Source: Dehalococcoidia bacterium
GTDB lineage: Bacteria; Chloroflexota; Dehalococcoidia; Bin125
Assembly (NCBI GenBank): GCA_965203775.1
Contig: OZ241913.1
Coordinates: 1,081,390 to 1,145,389 of the forward strand
DNA: 64,000 nt
Reading direction: 5' to 3'
In this document: positions 5,900 through 56,646 of the stretch, piece by piece
Layout: every line of letters begins with the position of its first letter
Position numbering within the stretch: position 1 is the stretch's first letter
The notes under the pieces: generated by a model
What the model was told of the DNA's origin: nothing
The model's database searches: none
Seen by the model: only the letters and a program-made list of their open reading frames with translations
Made by a program: the position numbers and the translations under genes

Positions 5900-6800
5900 T
5901 GTTCACACTAATCACGCCCTCCACCCCTCCCTCCGTCATTCCTGCGCAGGCAGGAACCCAGGCGACCACCAGCGCCTGCGCTCGCCACCGGTATCTCGCC
6001 ACGCCCACCACCCCCCCAACACCCACCCCTTCCCCAATTCATCCCTCCCCCCTTCCAGGGGGGAGGTGAGGAGGGGGGTGGGCAGCCACGCCAACGCACC
6101 AAGCGCACCCAGCCCCAATCCCGACGCCACCCCTCCGTCGCACCCGCCCCAACCGTCATACCCCCGCCCCCTCTGTCACTCCTGCGCCCTCTTCCGTCAT
6201 TCCTGCGCAGGCAGGAACCCAGGCGACCACCAGCGCCTGCGCTCGCCACCGGTATCTCGTCACGCCCACCACCCAGCCAACACCCACCCCTTCCCCAATT
6301 CATCCCTCCCCCCTACTAGGGGGGAGGTGAGGAGGGGGGTGGGCAGCCACAAGCCAACGCACCAAACGCGCCCTGCCCCGATCCCTACCCCACACCTCCA
6401 TCGCCCCCGCCCCAACCGTCATACCCGCGCCCCTCTGTCACTCCTGCGCCCCCCTCCGTCATTCCTGCGCAGGCAGGAACCACGCGACCCCCAACCTACC
6501 CCCAAATCCACCCCCCACACGCATCCCTCCTCACACCCCCCAACACCCACCCCTTCCCCAATTCATCCCTCCCCCCCTACCAGGGGGGAGGTGAGGTGGG
6601 GGGTGAGAAGCCACGAGCCAACGCCCCAAGCGCACCCAGCCCCAATCCCTACGCCACACCTCCATCGCCCCCGCCCCCTCCGTCATCCTTGCACCTCCTC
6701 CGCCGCACCCGCCCCCTTCCGTCATTCCTGCCCCCTCCGTCATTCCTGCGCCCCCTTCGTCATTCCTGCGCAGGCAGGAACGGAAGGAAAGAGCGCAAAC
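5900..6800. repeat. tandem triplication (about 260 bp unit) of composite REP-like element (module A + module B)
   Basis: Three near-identical units starting near 5930, 6190 and 6450. Each holds GTCATTCCTGCGCAGGCAGGAAC and CCCTTCCCCAATTCATCCCTCCCCCC..GGGGGGAGGTGAGG. Confidence 0.9.
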
Positions 6801-13000: not shown

Positions 13001-13440
13001 CGCTCCACCTCCAACATCCGTTGCACCCCAAGCGCCAACTTAGCGAACCCAGACGACTCCAGGGCCGTTCACGCTAAGCGCGCCCACCACCCGCCCCTTC
13101 CCCAATTCATCCCTCCCCCCTTCCAGGGGGGAGGTTAGGTGGGGGGTGGGAGGCCCCGAGTGTCCACCAGCGGCCGAGCCGCAGCCCGCACCCTCCAAGA
13201 CGCATCCACACTCCCTTCACCCCCGCGCCCCTCTTCCGCCACCCCCGCGCCCCCCTCTCCGTCATTCCTGCGCAGGCAGGAACCACCCACCCCCTTCCCC
13301 AATTCATCCCTCCCCCCTTTTAGGGGGGAGGTTAGGTGGGGGGTGGGAGGCCCCGAGCGTCCACCAGCGGCCGAGCGGCAGCCCGCGCCCTCCAAGGCGC
13401 ATCCACACCCCCGCTCCCCCCAGCTATCACACAGGCGCCC

Positions 13441-13522
13441 CACTGGTGTAAAGTGACAACCGTGAACCACACCGCCAACCTCCCGACCGCCGCCCAACGC
13501 GCCCGCCGCGCGGCAGCGGCGC
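13441..13522 (+). promoter_or_regulatory. conserved leader (about 80 bp) shared by the three RCC1-like genes, candidate -10 TAAAGT
   Basis: Near-identical to 34347-34431. Related to 48741-48821 (TGGTGTAGAGT variant). Confidence 0.35.
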
Positions 13523-15310
13523 TTGCCCGATCGGGGGGGGGGGGGGGATAAATTCCTCCCGATCGCCCTAGCGATCGCCGCGCTCCTACTCGCCGCCCTG
13601 ACCCTCGCTCAAGCCGCCACGCCCACCTCAACCAGCCGCTACCTCGCGCTCGACGCCGGCGGCGAGCATCAATGCACGCTCCGAGCCGACGGCGCAATCC
13701 GCTGCTGGGGCGGCAACTCCGCCGAGCTGCGCGATGTTCCGGAGGGGCGCTACGCCGCCGTCAGCGCCGGGGCTTGGCACAACTGCGCAATTCGGCGGGG
13801 GAGCGGGGCGGTCGTCTGTTGGGGCGGCGACTCGAACGCGCCTGACGGCGCGTTCAGCGAGATCGCCGTCGGCTGGCAGTTCGCCTGCGGCGTGCGCGAA
13901 ACGGGCGAGCTTGAGTGCTGGGGAACCAGCAGCTTCGGCCGCAGCGTGCTCGACTACGGGCAGGCCGAGCCGCCGGAGGGGGAGTTCAGCGCGGTTAGCG
14001 CGGGCTATCTGCACGCCTGCGGGCTGCGGACGACGGGAGAAGTTGCCTGTTGGGGGCGCGCCAACCTTGGGCGCACTGATGCGCCCGAGGGAGTCTTCAC
14101 GCAGGTGAGCGCGGGCACGACGCACTCCTGCGCGCTGCGCGAGAGTGGCGCGGTGGAGTGCTGGGGTCTGAACAACTTCGGGCAGTTGGATGCGCCGTCG
14201 GGCGTCTTCACTCAAGTGAGCGCCGGCGCGTGGCACTCCTGCGGGTTGCGCGAATCGGGGGTCATCGAATGCTGGGGGGATGATCGCTATGGGCAGTCCA
14301 ACGCCCCGTCCGGGCGCTACCTCGCTGTGAGCGCGGGAACGCGCCATTCCTGCGCCCTAAGCCGCGCGAGTGCTCGCTGCTGGGGCGGGCAGGATGATCG
14401 CCTGCTCGAGCTGATCGCGGGGCTCTCCCCGACAAGCGCCCCCCGGACCGTCGCTGCTCCCTCAATCCCTGATGAGGACGGCGCAACACCGGACCCGCCG
14501 ACGCCCACGCCGACATCCACGACATTCACCGCTGTCAGCGCGGGCGGGCGGCACACTTGCGCTTTGAAGAGCACCGGGGCGATCGACTGCTGGGGCGCGA
14601 ACGCATACGGCCAGAGCACGGATCCGACGGGCACATTCACCGCCGTCAGCGCGGGCATTTGGCATACTTGCGCCGTGACCAGCGCAGGTACGATCTCCTG
14701 CTGGGGGTTGAGCACGGAGCAACGGACCAACGCGCCGTCGGGCAGCTTTACGGCGGTCGGAGCCGGCGACCAACACAGCTGCGGCCTGCGCAGCACCGGG
14801 GCGGTCGAATGCTGGGGCAACAATCTGCATGGGCAAAGCAACGATCCGACAGGCAGCTTTACAGCGATCAGCGTCGGCACGAATCACAGCTGCGGCCTGC
14901 TGAGCAGCGGCGCGCTCTCGTGTTGGGGGCACAGCGGCAGCAATCGGCTCAACGCGCCGTCGGGCAGCTTCAGCGCGGTCAGCGCCGGCGGGCAGCACAG
15001 TTGCGCCATCACCAGTGCCGGCGCAATCGACTGCTGGGGGTACGGTGCCAACGGGCGAGCCGATGACCAGAGCGGCAATTTCAGCGTGGTGAGCGTGGGC
15101 GACGGGCACAGCTGCGCCGTGACTAGCGCGGGAGCGATCTCGTGCTGGGGACTGGATACTCGGCGCCAAGTGCGCGATGCGCCCTCCTCAGGCACGTTCA
15201 CGGCGGTCAGCGCGGGCCTCGATCACACCTGCGGCATCAAGGCCGACGGCACGATCTCCTGTTGGGGCCGAAACATCGAAGACCAGGCACCGGCGACGCG
15301 CTCGCCCTGA
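13523..15310 (+). CDS. secreted RCC1/BLIP-II-like repeat protein (two beta-propeller domains joined by a PT-rich linker), paralog 1. G15 tract at 13533-13547 inside codons 5-9
   Basis: TTG start. MPDRGGGGDK then signal-peptide-like IALAIAALLLAALTLAQA. Repeated CWG..G(Q/R)...P.G.F..VSAG..H.C motifs about every 50 aa. Confidence 0.7.
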   Translation: MPDRGGGGDKFLPIALAIAALLLAALTLAQAATPTSTSRYLALDAGGEHQCTLRADGAIRCWGGNSAELRDVPEGRYAAVSAGAWHNCAIRRGSGAVVCWGGDSNAPDGAFSEIAVGWQFACGVRETGELECWGTSSFGRSVLDYGQAEPPEGEFSAVSAGYLHACGLRTTGEVACWGRANLGRTDAPEGVFTQVSAGTTHSCALRESGAVECWGLNNFGQLDAPSGVFTQVSAGAWHSCGLRESGVIECWGDDRYGQSNAPSGRYLAVSAGTRHSCALSRASARCWGGQDDRLLELIAGLSPTSAPRTVAAPSIPDEDGATPDPPTPTPTSTTFTAVSAGGRHTCALKSTGAIDCWGANAYGQSTDPTGTFTAVSAGIWHTCAVTSAGTISCWGLSTEQRTNAPSGSFTAVGAGDQHSCGLRSTGAVECWGNNLHGQSNDPTGSFTAISVGTNHSCGLLSSGALSCWGHSGSNRLNAPSGSFSAVSAGGQHSCAITSAGAIDCWGYGANGRADDQSGNFSVVSVGDGHSCAVTSAGAISCWGLDTRRQVRDAPSSGTFTAVSAGLDHTCGIKADGTISCWGRNIEDQAPATRSP

Positions 15311-32599: not shown

Positions 32600-32989
32600 C
32601 CGAGCATACGCAGCGCCCGCACCCCACCCGTCATTCCTGCGCAGGCAGGAACCCACGCCTCCCTCTCCGTCATTCCTGCGCAGGCAGGAACCGCACCCCC
32701 TCTCCGTCATTCCCGCGCTCCTCCTCCGTCATTCCTGCGCAGGCAGGAACCCACCCACCCCACCACCCACCCCTTCCCCAATTCATCCCTCCCCCCTTTT
32801 AGGGGGGAGGTTAGGAGGGGGGTGGAAAGCCCCGAGCGTCCACCAGCGGCCGAGCGCGGCAACCCGCACCCACCAAGACGCATCCACACTCCCTTCACCC
32901 TCGCGCCTCCTCTCCGTCATTCCTGCGCAGGCAGGAACCCTCCCACCCCACCACCCACCCCTTCCCCAATTCATCCCTCCCCCCTTTTA
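32600..32989. repeat. composite REP-like array (modules A and B). The last module B is interrupted by the IS5-family insertion
   Basis: Sequence match to other arrays. Confidence 0.85.
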
Positions 32990-34177
32990 GAGACCTTTGA
33001 AAAAGTCGGCTGGCGGGGTTGTTGGGGGCGTTTTAGGGCGCGGGATGGCGCGGTTGGGGCCTTGCGCGGGGGGTTCGGGCGGGTGTTTTTGGGGCTGCGC
33101 GGGCGGGTTGGGCGCACTGCGCCCGGCGGCGGCGAGGCTTAGACTGCGGCCTGCAGCCGCACGAGTTTGCGCAGGTTGAAGGCGAGGCATTTGAGGTAGA
33201 ACTCGAAGCGGTTGCGCTCCAGGCTGTAGTAGCGCGTGGTGCGGTAGCCGTAGCTGCGTTTGAACGTGCCGAAGACCGGCTCGACCTTGCGTCTGGTTCG
33301 CTCCCAGAGCGCGTTCAGTTCGCGCTCCGCCTCCGTCAGCGGGTGGTAGCGGTCGGCCCGTCTGAGGATGCGGCAGTCGATCCGCATCGCCTCCAGCAGT
33401 GCGCGCCGCTCGGCCTTGTCGTAGGCGCGGTCGGCGTGCACCGCCGCCTCGTCGCCGGTCAGCAGCGCCTCGGCGACCTGCGACTCGTTGACGTTGGCCG
33501 GGGTGAAGACGCCGCGGCGGATCAGTTGGGTGTCGGCGTCGACCCCGATGTGGCCTTTGTAGCCGTAGCAGGCGTTCCCGCGGGCGCCGCCCCAGGCGGC
33601 GTCCGGGTCGGTCGGCCCCTGGGCCGACTTGGAGCGCCGCCGCGAGGCCTGCGCCTCGATCAGCGTGGCGTCCATCAGCGTCGCGCGGCCCGGCTCGATG
33701 AACAGCCCCTGCGCCTCCAACTGCTCGTCCAACTCGCGCAGCAGCGCCTCGCCCAGCCCGCGCTGCGCGAACAGCGCGCGGTAACGGCTGATCGTGGAGT
33801 GATCGGGGATCTCCTCGCAGAGGCTCAGCCCCGCGAAGCGGCAGAACGAGGCGCGCTCCCAGAGCATGTCCTCCATCGCCGGGTCGGACAGGTCGCGCCA
33901 CTGCTGCAGCAGACAGATTTTGAGCATGACCAGCGCCGGGTAGGCCTTGCGGCCCATCCGCGAGCCGTGCAGCCCGGCCAGCAGCCGCGCGAAGCGCGTC
34001 CAGTCAATCGCCGCGTGGATCGCCTCCAACTGCGCGTTGCGCCCGCGACGCTCCGGTATCTGCGCCTCGCCGAACGACCCCTGCCTGCGCTCACGCTCCA
34101 TGCCGCACCCCTTTCGCGTCCAACCCACCGCGTTCCCCACAAGAATCGCCGATCCCCCAGAGTTGTGCAAAGGTCTC
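32990..34177 (-). mobile_element. IS5-family insertion sequence (1188 bp) with 10-bp terminal inverted repeats GAGACCTTTG and 5-bp target-site duplication TTTTA
   Basis: Left end GAGACCTTTGAAAAAG, right end CAAAGGTCTC. Flanking TTTTA at 32985-32989 and 34178-34182. Removing the element restores an intact module-B repeat CCCCCCTTTTAGGGGGG. Confidence 0.8.
33139..34170 (-). CDS. IS5-family DDE transposase
   Basis: YGYKGHIGVDADTQLIRRGVFTPANVNESQ ... VEPVFGTFKRSYGY ... FYLKCLAFNLRKL, typical of the IS5 group. Confidence 0.8.
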   Translation of the reverse strand: MHNSGGSAILVGNAVGWTRKGCGMERERRQGSFGEAQIPERRGRNAQLEAIHAAIDWTRFARLLAGLHGSRMGRKAYPALVMLKICLLQQWRDLSDPAMEDMLWERASFCRFAGLSLCEEIPDHSTISRYRALFAQRGLGEALLRELDEQLEAQGLFIEPGRATLMDATLIEAQASRRRSKSAQGPTDPDAAWGGARGNACYGYKGHIGVDADTQLIRRGVFTPANVNESQVAEALLTGDEAAVHADRAYDKAERRALLEAMRIDCRILRRADRYHPLTEAERELNALWERTRRKVEPVFGTFKRSYGYRTTRYYSLERNRFEFYLKCLAFNLRKLVRLQAAV

Positions 34178-34431
34178 TTTTAGGGGGGAGGTTAGGTGGG
34201 GGGTGAGAGGCCCCGAGCGTCCACCAGCGGCCGAGCGCGACAACCCGCACCCTCCAAGACGCATCCACACTCCCGTCATTCCTGCCTCCCCACCGTCATT
34301 CCTGCGCAGGCAGGAACCCGCGACGAGCGCAGCTATGACGAAGGCGCCCCACTGGTGTAAAGTGACAACCGTGAACCACACCGCCAACCCCCAAACCACC
34401 GCCCAACGCGCCGGCCGCGCGTTGGCGGCGC

Positions 34432-36249
34432 TTACCCGATCGGGGGGGGGGGGGGGATAAATTCCTCCCGATCGCCCTCGCGATCGCCGCGCTCCTGCTC
34501 GCCGCCCTGACCCTTGCCCAGGCCGCCACGCCCACCTCAACCAGCCGCTACCTCGCGCTGGACGCCGGCGGCGAGCACCAATGCACCCTCCGCGCCGACG
34601 GCGTGATTCGCTGCTGGGGCGGCAACTCATCCGAGCTGCGCGATGTTCCGGAGGGGCGCTACGCGGCGGTCGGTGCCGGGGCGTGGCACAACTGCGCGAT
34701 TCGGCGGGGGAGCGGGGATGTCGTCTGCTGGGGCGGAGACTCGAACGCGCCTGACGGCGCGTTCGTTGATGTGGCCGCAGGCTGGCAGTTCGCCTGCGGC
34801 GTGCGCGAGGCAGGCGAGCTTGAGTGCTGGGGAACCAGCAGCTTCGGGCGCAGCGTGCTCGACTACGGCCAAGCGGAGCCGCCCGATGGCGAATTCAGCG
34901 CGGTTAGCGCCGGCTACCTGCACGCCTGCGGACTGCAAACGACAGGCGAAATCACCTGTTGGGGCCGCGCCAACCTCGGACGCACCAACGCGCCATCAGG
35001 CACTTTCACCCAAGTAAGCGCCGGCACCACGCACAGCTGCGCCCTGCGCGAAACCGGCGCAGCCGAATGCTGGGGCCTCAACAACTTCGGCCAGATGGAC
35101 GCTCCCTCAGGCGTCTTCACCCAAATCAGCGCCGGAGCCTGGCACAGCTGCGGGTTGCGCGAATCAGGCGCAATCGAATGCTGGGGCGACGACCGCTACG
35201 GCCAGTCCAACGCCCCATCCGGGCGCTACCTCGCCGTGAGCGCGGGAATGCGCCACTCCTGCGCCCTAAGCCGCGCGGGCACGCGCTGCTGGGGCGGGCA
35301 GGACGATCGCCTGCCTGAGCTGATTGTGGAGCTCGCGCCGGCAAGCAGCACCCGGACCGTCGCGGCTCCCTCAAGCGGCGACGAAAGCGATACGACGCCG
35401 GACCCTGTGACGCCCACGCCGACACCAACACCGACTCCGCCGACGACGACCTTCACCACGCTGAGCGCGGGCGACTATCACAACTGCGCGCGACGCAGCA
35501 CGGGCACGATCGACTGCTGGGGCAGTAACACAAACGGTCAGAGCGCCGATCCCTCCGGCAGCAGCTTCACGACAGCCAGCGCGGGCACCTCGCAGAGCTG
35601 CGGGCTGACCAGCGCCGGTGCGCTCTCCTGCTGGGGGCTGAGCACTACGCGTCCGACCACGGCGCAGGCGCAATCCAGCACGTTCACCGCGGTTGACGCC
35701 GGCGGGGTTGTCTGCGCCGTGCGCAGCGCGGGCACGCTCGCCTGCTGGGGGACGGCCGCCTATGGCGAAGACACGCCACCGACGGGCAGCAGCTTTACGG
35801 CGGTGAGCGTGGGCGACGAGCACGCCTGTGCGCTGAGCAGCGCGGGCGCCATCTCCTGTTGGGGTCGAAGCGCCAATGGGCGGACGACGGTTACGGCTGG
35901 CACGTATACGGCCGTGAGCGCGGGCGGGTTCCATAGCTGCGGGCTGACCAGCACGGGCGCGATCGTCTGCTGGGGCTGGAATGGCTACGGTCAGAGCGCC
36001 GCGCAAACGGGGACATTCACGGCGGTCAGCGCGGGCTGGGGGCACACCTGCGGCCTGCGCAGCACGGGCGCGATCGAGTGCTGGGGTCGGAGCAGCGCCC
36101 ACCCGACCACGGCGCAGGGGCAATCGAGCACGTTCACGGCGGTCGCGGCAGGCCGCGATCACACCTGCGGGCTGAAGAGCGACGGCACGATCGCCTGCTG
36201 GGGCAGCAACGCGAGCGGGCAAGCGCCGACGGCGGGCGTGTCGCCGTAG
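34432..36249 (+). CDS. RCC1-like double beta-propeller secreted protein, paralog 2. Canonical TTG start replaced by TTA; G15 tract at 34442-34456; first usable in-frame start GTG at 34603
   Basis: The frame is open from 34432 and encodes the same signal peptide as paralogs 1 and 3, but the track ORF starts at 34603 because no start codon remains upstream. Confidence 0.55.
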   Translation, partial: LPDRGGGGDKFLPIALAIAALLLAALTLAQAATPTSTSRYLALDAGGEHQCTLRADGVIRCWGGNSSELRDVPEGRYAAVGAGAWHNCAIRRGSGDVVCWGGDSNAPDGAFVDVAAGWQFACGVREAGELECWGTSSFGRSVLDYGQAEPPDGEFSAVSAGYLHACGLQTTGEITCWGRANLGRTNAPSGTFTQVSAGTTHSCALRETGAAECWGLNNFGQMDAPSGVFTQISAGAWHSCGLRESGAIECWGDDRYGQSNAPSGRYLAVSAGMRHSCALSRAGTRCWGGQDDRLPELIVELAPASSTRTVAAPSSGDESDTTPDPVTPTPTPTPTPPTTTFTTLSAGDYHNCARRSTGTIDCWGSNTNGQSADPSGSSFTTASAGTSQSCGLTSAGALSCWGLSTTRPTTAQAQSSTFTAVDAGGVVCAVRSAGTLACWGTAAYGEDTPPTGSSFTAVSVGDEHACALSSAGAISCWGRSANGRTTVTAGTYTAVSAGGFHSCGLTSTGAIVCWGWNGYGQSAAQTGTFTAVSAGWGHTCGLRSTGAIECWGRSSAHPTTAQGQSSTFTAVAAGRDHTCGLKSDGTIACWGSNASGQAPTAGVSP

Positions 36250-48740: not shown

Positions 48741-48821
48741 GCTGGTGTAGAGTTTCACTCATGCGACGCGACTCCCACACCCCGACCACCCTCCAACGCG
48801 CCTGCCGCGCGTTGGCGGCGC
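48741..48821 (+). promoter_or_regulatory. leader of RCC1-like paralog 3 (related to 13441-13522)
   Basis: Shares the ...CAACGCGCC.GCCGCGCG(TT/GC)GGCGGCGCTTGCCCGATCGG 3' half with the other two leaders. Confidence 0.3.
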
Positions 48822-50642
48822 TTGCCCGATCGGGGGGGGGGGGGGGGGGATAAATTCCTCCCGATCGCCCTCGCGATCGCCGCACTCCTGCTCGCCGCTC
48901 TGACCCTCGCCCAAGCCGCCACCCCCACCTCAACCAGCCGCTACCTGGCGCTCGACGCGGGCGGCGAGCATCAATGCACCCTCCGCGCCGACGGAGTCAT
49001 CCGCTGCTGGGGCGGCAATCAGGCAGATCTGCGCAACATCCCCGACGGCCGCTACAGCGCCATCAGCGCCGGCGCATGGCACAACTGCGCCATCCGCCAG
49101 GGCAGCGGCGAAATCGCCTGCTGGGGCGCAGATCAGAACGCGCCTGACGGCGCGTTCAGCGAGATCGCCGTCGGCTGGCAGTTCGCCTGCGCCATCCGCG
49201 CGAGCGACAGCGAGCTCGAATGCTGGGGAACCAACAGCTTCGGCCGCAGCGTTCTCGACTACGGCCAAGCCGACCCGCCCAACGGCGAGTTCACCTCCGT
49301 GAGCGCCGGCTACCTCCACGCCTGCGGACTACAAACGACAGGCGAAATCACCTGTTGGGGCCGCGACAACCTCGGACGCACCGACGCGCCTGAGGGCGTC
49401 TTCACACAGGTAAGCGCCGGCACCACGCACAGCTGCGCCATCCGCGAAAACGGCGCAGCCGAGTGTTGGGGCCTCAACAACTTCGGGCAGTTGGACGCCC
49501 CCTCAGGAGCCTTCACTCAAATCAGCGCGGGCGCATGGCATAGCTGCGGATTGCGCGAATCAGGCGCAATCGAGTGCTGGGGAGATGACCGCTACGGGCA
49601 GTCCAACGCTCCATCCGGGCGCTATGTCGCTGTGAGCGCAGGAATGCGCCACTCATGCGCGCTCAGCAGCGAGCGCGCTCGCTGCTGGGGCGGTCAGGAT
49701 GATCGCCTGCCTGAGCTGATCGCGGAGCTCGCCCCAACGAGCGCCACCCGGACCGTCGCGGATAGTTCGGCTGAGGACGAAAGCGACACAACGCCGGACC
49801 CTGTGGCGCCCACACCAACCCCCACGCCGACACCGACACCGACGACTACTTTCACCACGCTGAGCGCGGGCCAGTATCACACCTGCGCGCGGCGCAGCAC
49901 GGGGACGATCGACTGCTGGGGACAAAACACATACGGCCAGGACGCCGATCCCTCCGGCAGCAGCTTCACGGCGGTCAGCGCGGGCATTACTCAGAGCTGC
50001 GCGCTGACCAGCGCGGGCGCGCTCTCCTGTTGGGGGCGAAGCGTTAACCGTCCCACCACAACCCAGGCGCAATCCAGCACGTTCACAGCGGTCGCCGCCG
50101 GCGGGGTTGTCTGCGCCGTCCGCAGCGCGGGCACGCTCGCCTGTTGGGGGGCGACCGCCTACGGCCAAAACAACCCGCCTTCGGGCAGCAGCTTCACGGC
50201 GGTGAGCGTGGGCCATGATCACGCTTGCGCGCTGAGCAGCGCGGGGACGATCTCCTGCTGGGGTCGGAACAACAGCGGACAGCGAGATGTTACAGCCGGC
50301 ACCTACACGGCCGTCAGCGCGGGTGGGGTTCATACCTGCGGGTTGACCAGCACGGGCGCGATCGTCTGTTGGGGTTGGAACGCCTTGGGCCAGACCGACG
50401 CGCAGACGGGCACGTTCACGGCGGTCAGCGCGGGCTGGGGGCATACCTGTGGTTTGCGCAGCACGGGCACGATCGAGTGCTGGGGCAACAACGCGAACGG
50501 GCAAAGCACGGTCACTGCAGGTACGTACACGGCAGTCGCGGCAGGGCGCGAGCACACCTGCGGGTTGAAGACCGACGGCGCGATTGCCTGCTGGGGCAGT
50601 AACGCGAGCGGGCAAGCGCCGTCCACAGGCGTGTCGCCCTGA
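48822..50642 (+). CDS. RCC1-like double beta-propeller secreted protein, paralog 3. G18 tract at 48832-48849
   Basis: TTG start, MPDRGGGGGDKFLPIALAIAALLLAALTLAQA, two CWG-repeat propellers joined by a PTPTPTPTPTP linker. Confidence 0.7.
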   Translation: MPDRGGGGGDKFLPIALAIAALLLAALTLAQAATPTSTSRYLALDAGGEHQCTLRADGVIRCWGGNQADLRNIPDGRYSAISAGAWHNCAIRQGSGEIACWGADQNAPDGAFSEIAVGWQFACAIRASDSELECWGTNSFGRSVLDYGQADPPNGEFTSVSAGYLHACGLQTTGEITCWGRDNLGRTDAPEGVFTQVSAGTTHSCAIRENGAAECWGLNNFGQLDAPSGAFTQISAGAWHSCGLRESGAIECWGDDRYGQSNAPSGRYVAVSAGMRHSCALSSERARCWGGQDDRLPELIAELAPTSATRTVADSSAEDESDTTPDPVAPTPTPTPTPTPTTTFTTLSAGQYHTCARRSTGTIDCWGQNTYGQDADPSGSSFTAVSAGITQSCALTSAGALSCWGRSVNRPTTTQAQSSTFTAVAAGGVVCAVRSAGTLACWGATAYGQNNPPSGSSFTAVSVGHDHACALSSAGTISCWGRNNSGQRDVTAGTYTAVSAGGVHTCGLTSTGAIVCWGWNALGQTDAQTGTFTAVSAGWGHTCGLRSTGTIECWGNNANGQSTVTAGTYTAVAAGREHTCGLKTDGAIACWGSNASGQAPSTGVSP

Positions 50643-54034: not shown

Positions 54035-55703
<1,669 letters not shown>

Positions 55704-56569: not shown

Positions 56570-56646
56570 TGGTGGGCCCTCTGGGACTCGAACCCAGGAC
56601 CTTCGGATTAAAAGTCCGCTGCTCTGCCAAACTGAGCTAAGGGCCC
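56570..56646 (-). tRNA. tRNA-Lys (anticodon UUU)
   Basis: Reverse complement folds as acceptor GGGCCCT/AGGGCCC, D arm GCTC-AGTTTGGCA-GAGC, anticodon loop CUUUUAA, T arm CTGGG-TTCGAGT-CCCAG, encoded CCA. Confidence 0.85.

Follow-up and report, generated by a model that had tools for sequence, protein, structure and literature searches.

The present analysis concerns a 64,000-nucleotide (nt) stretch of DNA from a Dehalococcoidia bacterium (contig OZ241913.1, positions 1,081,390 to 1,145,389, in assembly GCA_965203775.1; G+C content, 69%), hereafter the window, which carries three paralogous genes for RCC1-like repeat proteins with a putative signal peptide. The second of these genes, here termed copy 2, had been considered in a preliminary description, made from the sequence alone, to have lost its start codon by a change from TTG to TTA. 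Upon comparison of 27 family members, namely the three copies in the window and 24 loci in the sister genome OZ241849.1, we are inclined to view copy 2 as an intact gene for a secreted protein, phase-variable by means of a poly-G tract and OFF as assembled, in which the TTA reflects an alanine-to-threonine change. The change from TTG to TTA is most likely harmless, and the loss of a start codon is most likely not what it represents.

All of the 27 copies contain a tract of 12–20 G residues at the same position. A count of 11 consecutive G produced 22 overlapping matches versus 0.42 expected, and the lengths of G/C runs in 241 kb of sequence from this lineage were distributed bimodally, extending up to 9 and then comprising only values of 12–20. 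Every long G/C run in these 241 kb fell within genes of the family, except for a G14 run that splits a single DNA methyltransferase gene. No ATG, GTG or TTG occurs between the tract and the signal peptide; therefore, translation of the exported protein must begin upstream of the tract, the length of which sets the frame. When copy 2 was translated in silico from the GTG at position 34371, tracts of G14 or G17 yielded proteins of 625–626 amino acids, and tracts of G13, G15 or G16 yielded products of 29–46 amino acids. This layout is that of a slipped-strand phase-variable gene, from which we infer the switching itself, and the tract very probably serves as a frame switch inside the 5' coding region.

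An out-of-frame stop codon follows the tract directly in all of the copies (TAA in each case but sister locus L007, which has TAG; positions 13549–13551 in copy 1 and 48851–48853 in copy 3). It arises from a codon ending in T (GAT, CGT, CAT or GGT) that precedes a lysine or arginine codon. Codon usage in the family favors G or C at third positions, the values being 36% for GAT, 21% for CAT, 4% for CGT and 6% for GGT, although the T of the post-tract stop may simply be inherited, which limits its weight. Inspection of the sequence led us to reject programmed ribosomal frameshifting at GGA-TAA, in that slippage by –1 reaches the third frame and slippage by +1 would involve re-pairing on GAT.

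The region upstream of the tract contains a second set of conserved elements. The sequence GGTGTA(A/G/C)AGT, which includes a hexamer resembling a –10 box of the TANNNT type, is present in 27 of 27 copies with variable sequence on either side, and hexamers similar to TATGAC, TATCAC or ATGACG are located at equivalent –35 spacing in most of them. The box is followed by a spacer of variable sequence and nearly constant length (7 nt, or 6 nt in two copies) and then by a start-like codon, namely GTG in all but two copies (25) and ATG in those two (copy 3 and L011). The T and G of this codon are invariant amid a variable stretch, and only the exchange of G for A is seen, the substitution expected of a start codon. 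Leaderless genes are known to carry TANNNT about 12 nt upstream of their starts, and they make up about 5% of the genes in 4 of 12 Chloroflexi genomes (PMC3160421). For mycobacteria, leaderless initiation was reported to need no more than an ATG or GTG at the 5' end, which was both necessary and sufficient, whereas TTG and CTG did not serve (PMC4633059). Both the interchange of purines before TG and the spacing from the box in the family match the leaderless pattern, and GTG 34371 is thus, as judged from the sequence, probably the start of copy 2.

The same arrangement was also observed outside of the family. TANNNT followed after 6 or 7 nt by an ATG or GTG that opens a long open reading frame (ORF) with high G+C at third codon positions was found 12 times in the 241 kb, versus about 3.9 expected (p = 7e-4), which suggests that leaderless genes may be a regular feature of this genome. 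Examples among these unrelated genes occur in L008 (position 4878), L010 (5841), L014 (286, minus strand) and L023 (6766).

The frame that begins at the GTG/ATG will be called frame A. The leader after this codon comprises 71–72 nt, of which the first 30 vary freely and the last 40 are conserved, and it leads into the G tract, then (A)TAAA or a variant thereof, and finally the core of the signal peptide. The spacer and the first ten codons of frame A differ at will among the copies, and frame A is free of stop codons in all 27. Toward the tract it reads ...QRA(R/G/C)RA(A/L)AAL(A/T)R(S/F)GGGG, i.e., a positively charged region with three to four arginines plus lysine ahead of the hydrophobic core. 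Variants immediately before the tract are synonymous in frame A (GCC/GCT/GCG, CTT/CTC and TTG/CTG/TTA) but radical in the frame of the TTG (Pro/Leu/Arg). A further TTG upstream, a leucine codon of frame A in copy 2, corresponds in other copies to TTG, CTG, TTA, GCG, GCA or GTG. A Tat signal was discounted, as an RR pair is present only in some copies, about 15 residues from the hydrophobic core. At the level of RNA, a consensus fold of 21 leaders (RNAalifold) contained 18 predicted pairs, none of them with compensatory changes, such that a conserved RNA structure in the leader is not supported, and a search of the whole window against Rfam at gathering thresholds yielded one tRNA and no match in the leaders.

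According to the proposed mechanism, copy 2 would be transcribed from the conserved –35/–10 promoter, with an mRNA that begins at or beside GTG 34371. Translation would proceed through a variable N-terminal extension of 23 codons and then through the G tract, read as polyglycine, and would reach the signal peptide only at tract lengths of 3n+2 (G14, G17 or G20 for copy 2). With the assembled G15, the frame would end at the conserved TAA right after the tract, leaving copy 2 OFF, and replication slippage by –1 G or +2 G would turn it ON. The flagged position would then be an internal alanine/threonine codon (GCC/ACC), the TTG an out-of-frame coincidence, and no start would have been lost. The frame-A product would contain the peptides AGRALAALTR and VNHTANPQTTAQR. 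Each copy of the family would be switched individually by its own hypermutable tract upstream of the signal-peptide core. The features in question are collected in Table 1.

Table 1. Positions in the window of the features of copy 2, its two paralogs and the adjacent insertion sequence.
Feature	Position	Strand	Remarks
Paralog 1	13462..15310	+	GTG 13462; TTG 13523; G15 13533-13547; ORF 13523-15310
IS5-type insertion sequence	32990..34177	-	Transposase ORF 33139-34170, 343 aa, DDE_Tnp_1 + DUF772
–35-like hexamer ATGACG	34335..34340	+	Copy 2; spacing of 17 nt to the –10-like box
Box GGTG-TAAAGT	34354..34363	+	Conserved; –10-like TANNNT hexamer TAAAGT at 34358-34363
GTG, proposed leaderless-type start of copy 2 (frame A)	34371..34373	+	7 nt after the –10-like box
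Frame-A ORF as assembled (G15)	34371..34460	+	29 codons, VNHTANPQTTAQRAGRALAALTRSGGGGG; stop TAA 34458-34460
Upstream TTG	34422..34424	+	Read as Leu in frame A; at G15, not in register with the signal peptide
Flagged TTA	34432..34434	+	TTG in copies 1 (13523-13525) and 3 (48822-48824); in frame A, GCC to ACC (Ala to Thr)
Copy 2 ORF from the flagged codon	34432-36249	+	
Poly-G tract, G15	34442..34456	+	Proposed slipped-strand frame switch; would be translated as poly-Gly
Signal-peptide core of copy 2, KFLPIALAIAALLLAALTLAQA	34459..34524	+	Probable AQA/A cleavage site
Mature RCC1-like protein of copy 2	34525..36249	+	Two repeat blocks with a Pro/Thr-rich linker between them; ORF intact
GTG, first canonical start in the signal-peptide frame	34603..34605	+	Product would be without the signal peptide
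Paralog 3	48761..50642	+	ATG 48761; TTG 48822; G18 48832-48849; ORF 48822-50642

Alignment of the three 5' regions bore out the TTA of copy 2 at the site occupied by TTG in copies 1 and 3. The preliminary description was also accurate in that the G15 tract and the signal peptide are retained, and that the first ATG, GTG or TTG in the frame of the signal peptide of copy 2 is the GTG at 34603. The signal-peptide frame is indeed open, but from 34375, following a TGA at 34372–34374, and not only from 34432. It is likewise intact as a sequence, although the tract had escaped recognition as a frame switch, in which this frame is one of three interchangeable states. No canonical start is in frame with the signal peptide at G15, and the view that the gene is not expressed in this state was reasonable. 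The loss of the start codon is probably a mistaken notion: the role of TTG as initiator was based on three copies, and in nine of the 27 the codon is not TTG. Overall, the site is occupied by TTG in 18 copies, TTA in 8 and TCA in 1 (16, 7 and 1, respectively, among the 24 sister copies). A look for TTG at this site in sister strains had been suggested; the syntenic locus, L002, has TTA together with G15. A sequencing error, which had been named as a refutation, is therefore very unlikely, and a recent private mutation is excluded. Efficient initiation at another codon upstream had likewise been named as a refutation, and a start-like GTG or ATG is in fact found there in all 27 copies, as a feature of the sequence rather than as demonstrated initiation.

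Most of the non-TTG copies are under purifying selection, with dN/dS values of 0.2–0.4. Seven of the nine are full-length (584–604 codons after the tract), and their dN/dS values of 0.22–0.42 are in the same range as those of the TTG copies. The other two, L021 (TCA) and L024 (TTA), have ORFs shortened to 443 and 106 codons after the tract, respectively, and may be decaying copies. Five of the TTA copies have in common a distinctive pair of indels around the tract (gatTc ... ACGTAAACCG), and the TTA must therefore be old in that lineage. Non-canonical initiation, such as at an ATC in the signal-peptide frame, was rejected, because the charged N-terminal region would be lost.

Several results weigh against a GTG start for a poly-G-switched copy 2. 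Frame A was not favored by pairwise pN/pS in the leader, its value being 1.06 as compared with 0.65 in the TTG frame and 1.01 in the third, and codon-position entropy revealed no three-base periodicity in leader variability. No constraint on the leader peptide is therefore visible, which would agree with an N-terminal extension free of constraint but lends it no positive support. The signal peptide of frame A would be unusually long, at about 51 amino acids. A consensus promoter scanner called no promoter for copy 2, the match being 8 of 12 positions where 9 were required. To our knowledge, leaderless initiation at GTG has not been demonstrated in Chloroflexota. The tracts of the 24 sister copies included 12 in the TTG phase and five in the GTG phase, a deviation from equal phases that is not significant (p = 0.20), and the modal length, G15, is a TTG-phase length. 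These lengths derive from the consensus of single-contig metagenome-assembled genomes (MAGs) and may be off by one base or more, with any heterogeneity in the population hidden. In one respect, which is suggestive only, a GTG start would accord with the excess of 3n tracts, since frame A then ends at once on the TAA or TAG that is kept after the tract.

The lack of a coding signature in the leader and the number of TTG-phase tracts are points in favor of an alternative, which we consider unlikely, whereby the TTG would be the true start, preceded by a 61-nt 5' untranslated region, and G15 and G18 would be ON states. The nine non-TTG copies would then be start-less and silent, and would have stayed intact either through recency of the loss or through service as donor cassettes in recombination with expressed copies. 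The TTG is positioned 10 nt before the tract and comes into frame at tract lengths of 3n, and copies 1 and 3 as assembled are in frame from it; nevertheless, the TTG phase is no commoner among the copies that have the TTG (7 of 16) than among those that do not (5 of 8; Fisher p = 0.67). The sequence before the TTG, GGCGGCGC, ends 3 nt upstream of it and is a poor match to a Shine-Dalgarno motif, and the resulting N-terminus, MPDRGGGGDK, would have a net charge of 0. Silent copies could be kept intact by exchange between copies, as syntenic gene bodies are only 52–91% identical between strains, versus 98–100% just beyond them, and the role of start-less copies as recombination donors therefore stays alive. 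However, in the nine non-TTG copies the promoter box and the signal peptide are preserved, as are the leader and the tract between them, mostly with full-length ORFs and TTG-like dN/dS values, and the TTA in the five-copy lineage with the indel pair is old. Moreover, the invariant GTG/ATG at 7 nt after the –10-like box would be left unexplained.

It is even less likely that both starts work, with the GTG being ON at 3n+2 and the TTG at 3n. Both codons exist, in different frames, and each is put in register by a different tract length; copy 2 would then have lost one of two ON phases and would switch on less often. The TTG is kept in 18 of the 27 copies, but it has no ribosome-binding signal and shows no association with tract phase, and a gene that is ON in two of three states would be a weak switch; nothing observed here requires this explanation. 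Finally, long homopolymers are prone to error in long-read assemblies, and the frequency of G15 (12 of 24 sister copies) is suspicious, but it is highly improbable that the TTA or the tract length is an artefact and the gene really TTG in frame, as the TTA lies outside of the homopolymer and recurs in seven paralogs, including the syntenic locus of an independently assembled genome.

The proteins encoded by these genes, which we prefer to regard as initiated at the GTG or ATG and switched by the tract, all contain RCC1_2 repeats in the window copies (Pfam, E 1e-85 to 1e-93). For copy 2, the match to RCC1_2 (PF13540) had an E value of 2e-85 and a score of 279 bits versus a cut-off of 22, in nine matched stretches, and RLD (PF25390) scored 176.7 versus a cut-off of 150. 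The dN/dS value of copy 2 with respect to its nearest paralog is 0.21. The core of the signal peptide, KFLPIALAIAALLLAALTLAQA, is identical in the alignment of the three window copies; a hydrophobic core (LPIALAIAALLLAALTL) and an AQA/A motif are visible by eye, and the charge at the N-terminus depends on the start used. The copies would carry putative signal peptides of the Sec type.

The matches to these repeats are strong, and bacterial relatives are typically annotated as alpha-tubulin suppressor-like RCC1 family proteins. The nearest relatives in the databases, however, are only about 30–45% identical and lack the N-terminus of copy 2. A search of the protein databases with the ON version of copy 2 in frame A was dominated by long RCC1-repeat proteins of no more than 45% identity and brought up neither a close relative nor an alternative N-terminus. 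A scan of JGI metagenome DNA for the pattern of tract plus signal peptide gave no matches, and a protein-pattern scan of the same metagenomes gave only distant relatives (up to 57% identity over short segments), none with a poly-G tract at the 5' end. Exact look-ups of the copy 2 ORF and of a neighboring transketolase subunit returned no match on record.

The family is abundant in the sister strain. A scan of one genome per species revealed at least 24 loci, all of them on the 3.31-Mb chromosome OZ241849.1, a MAG of a Dehalococcoidia bacterium. The window is not part of this chromosome but belongs to a sister strain, with flanks that are 94–100% identical. The region of copy 1 is conserved between the strains, being 98.5% identical to L001, with the same leader and G15 in both. 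L002 is the positional counterpart of copy 2: its flanks are identical to those of copy 2 at 94–98% or better, both carry 47 bp of inserted sequence upstream, which is missing from copy 1, and both have G15. One distal flank of L002 is inverted. For copy 3, the upstream flank matches L011 and the downstream flank matches L006; the sister genome has these two loci at a distance of about 130 kb from each other. Copy 3 (G18) shares its upstream flank and type of leader with L011 (G16), but the bodies of the two are not orthologous; nor does that of copy 3 correspond to L006, despite the matching flanks.

At the copy 2 locus, the identity between strains is about 91% through the promoter, leader and N-terminus and falls to 52–75% in the C-terminal half of the gene, and then rises at a sharp boundary at the 3' end to 98–100% right after the stop codon. 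The synonymous divergence of this locus (dS 0.71) is high for strains with near-identical flanks and therefore points to recombination among copies, by which alleles were replaced, and to paralogs having taken part in rearrangements, rather than to drift by point mutation.

The closest analogue of such a family is the Opa system of Neisseria, in which a CTCTT repeat in the leader-peptide coding sequence sets the frame independently at each of about 11 opa loci (PMC3745409). Both are many-copy families of exported proteins, in which each copy has its own repeat tract inside the region coding for the signal or leader peptide. Opa copies also diversify by recombination, as compared with the allele replacement suggested here for the copy 2 and copy 3 loci. 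The two systems differ in the repeat (a mononucleotide G run here, a pentamer there), in the protein (RCC1-like repeats versus beta-barrels), in the organism (an uncultured Dehalococcoidia versus a host-restricted pathogen) and in the apparently leaderless start of the present genes, the switching of which is proposed from the sequence. Contingency genes with G/C tracts in the 5' part of the ORF are familiar from Campylobacter jejuni, Haemophilus, Helicobacter and Neisseria, where they encode surface or secreted proteins and the methyltransferases of restriction-modification systems. Their tracts are typically 8–13 in length and reside in unrelated genes, in contrast to the tracts of 12–20 described here, whose position is the same throughout a single family of at least 24 paralogs.

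Leaderless mRNAs of Actinobacteria and Deinococcus-Thermus likewise have TANNNT at 6–7 nt before ATG or GTG and no Shine-Dalgarno motif (PMC3160421, PMC4633059, PMC4007540). The present case concerns another phylum and is proposed from the sequence, and the GGTG that precedes the hexamer is not the canonical extended –10 motif TGn. The kind of system is a known one; the protein family (RCC1-like), phylum, copy number, tract length and apparent leaderless start are new.

We tentatively envisage an Opa-like combinatorial system, in which at least 24 secreted RCC1-like proteins would be switched independently by poly-G tracts, with leaderless ORFs, extended signal peptides, exchange of alleles and a poly-G-switched methyltransferase nearby. 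If true, it would be the first contingency-gene family described in Chloroflexota. Contingency loci based on homopolymers are a textbook trait of pathogens adapted to a host, and we know of no such variation in this lineage; a family of this size in an environmental Chloroflexota genome, with allele replacement between near-identical strains, would suggest stochastic variation of the surface or the secretome, perhaps directed against phages, predators or a host. The tracts of 15 or more G could, speculatively, form G-quadruplexes and act as initiators of recombination as well, which is the role of the G-quadruplex associated with pilE in Neisseria. The copy 2 locus also illustrates a pitfall, in that gene callers and readers assign wrong starts or pseudogenes where a hypermutable tract sets the frame, especially in long-read MAGs. 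The 27 natural variants provide material with which leaderless initiation and extended signal peptides could be tested in Chloroflexota. Viewed as a loss of a start codon, the flagged change would hold little interest; it gains a moderate one by pointing to a contingency-gene family in Dehalococcoidia.

The methyltransferase gene mentioned above (54035–55703 in the window) encodes a fusion of an N6/N4 DNA methyltransferase with an endonuclease domain of the Mrr-like/NA-iREase1 type and is split by the G14 run at 54290–54303. In silico, a run of G13 or G16 gives a single protein of 555–556 amino acids, and the gene is a candidate for a phase-variable restriction-modification or "phasevarion" gene. 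The sole tRNA gene of the Rfam scan (56573–56646, minus strand) is located about 0.9 kb downstream.

The element next to copy 2 is an intact insertion sequence (IS) of the IS5 type, as had been noted originally. Its transposase contains the domains PF01609 (E 3e-26) and PF05598 (E 1e-19), its terminal inverted repeats are imperfect (GAGACCTTTG.../...CAAAGGTCTC), and it is flanked by a target-site duplication of TTTTA (32985–32989 and 34178–34182), all of which are traits of the IS5 family. The IS lies 194 bp upstream of GTG 34371 and is absent from the syntenic sister locus L002. Its insertion, into a repeat between genes, is specific to this strain, and no bearing of it on the start of copy 2 is visible.

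The repeat in question is dispersed, intergenic and about 60–115 bp in length around a hairpin, CCCTCCCCCC-TTTTA-GGGGGGAGG, and the IS is inserted in the loop of one copy. These repeats are often arrayed at a spacing of about 190–260 bp and were located in the window at 6035, 6296, 6559, 13103, 13300, 25328, 25515, 32779, 32967/34177, 40347, 40584, 40821, 57029 and 60138, as well as in sister loci L002, L004–L006, L009, L014 and L017. A shorter palindromic repeat, CGTCATTCCTGCGCAGGCAGGAA(TGACG), is also intergenic; it occurs at 13260–13285, 32729–32748, 32917–32936 and 34296–34315 and upstream of many of the sister loci, and in several of the family promoters the –35-like hexamer is the ATGACG at the end of this repeat.

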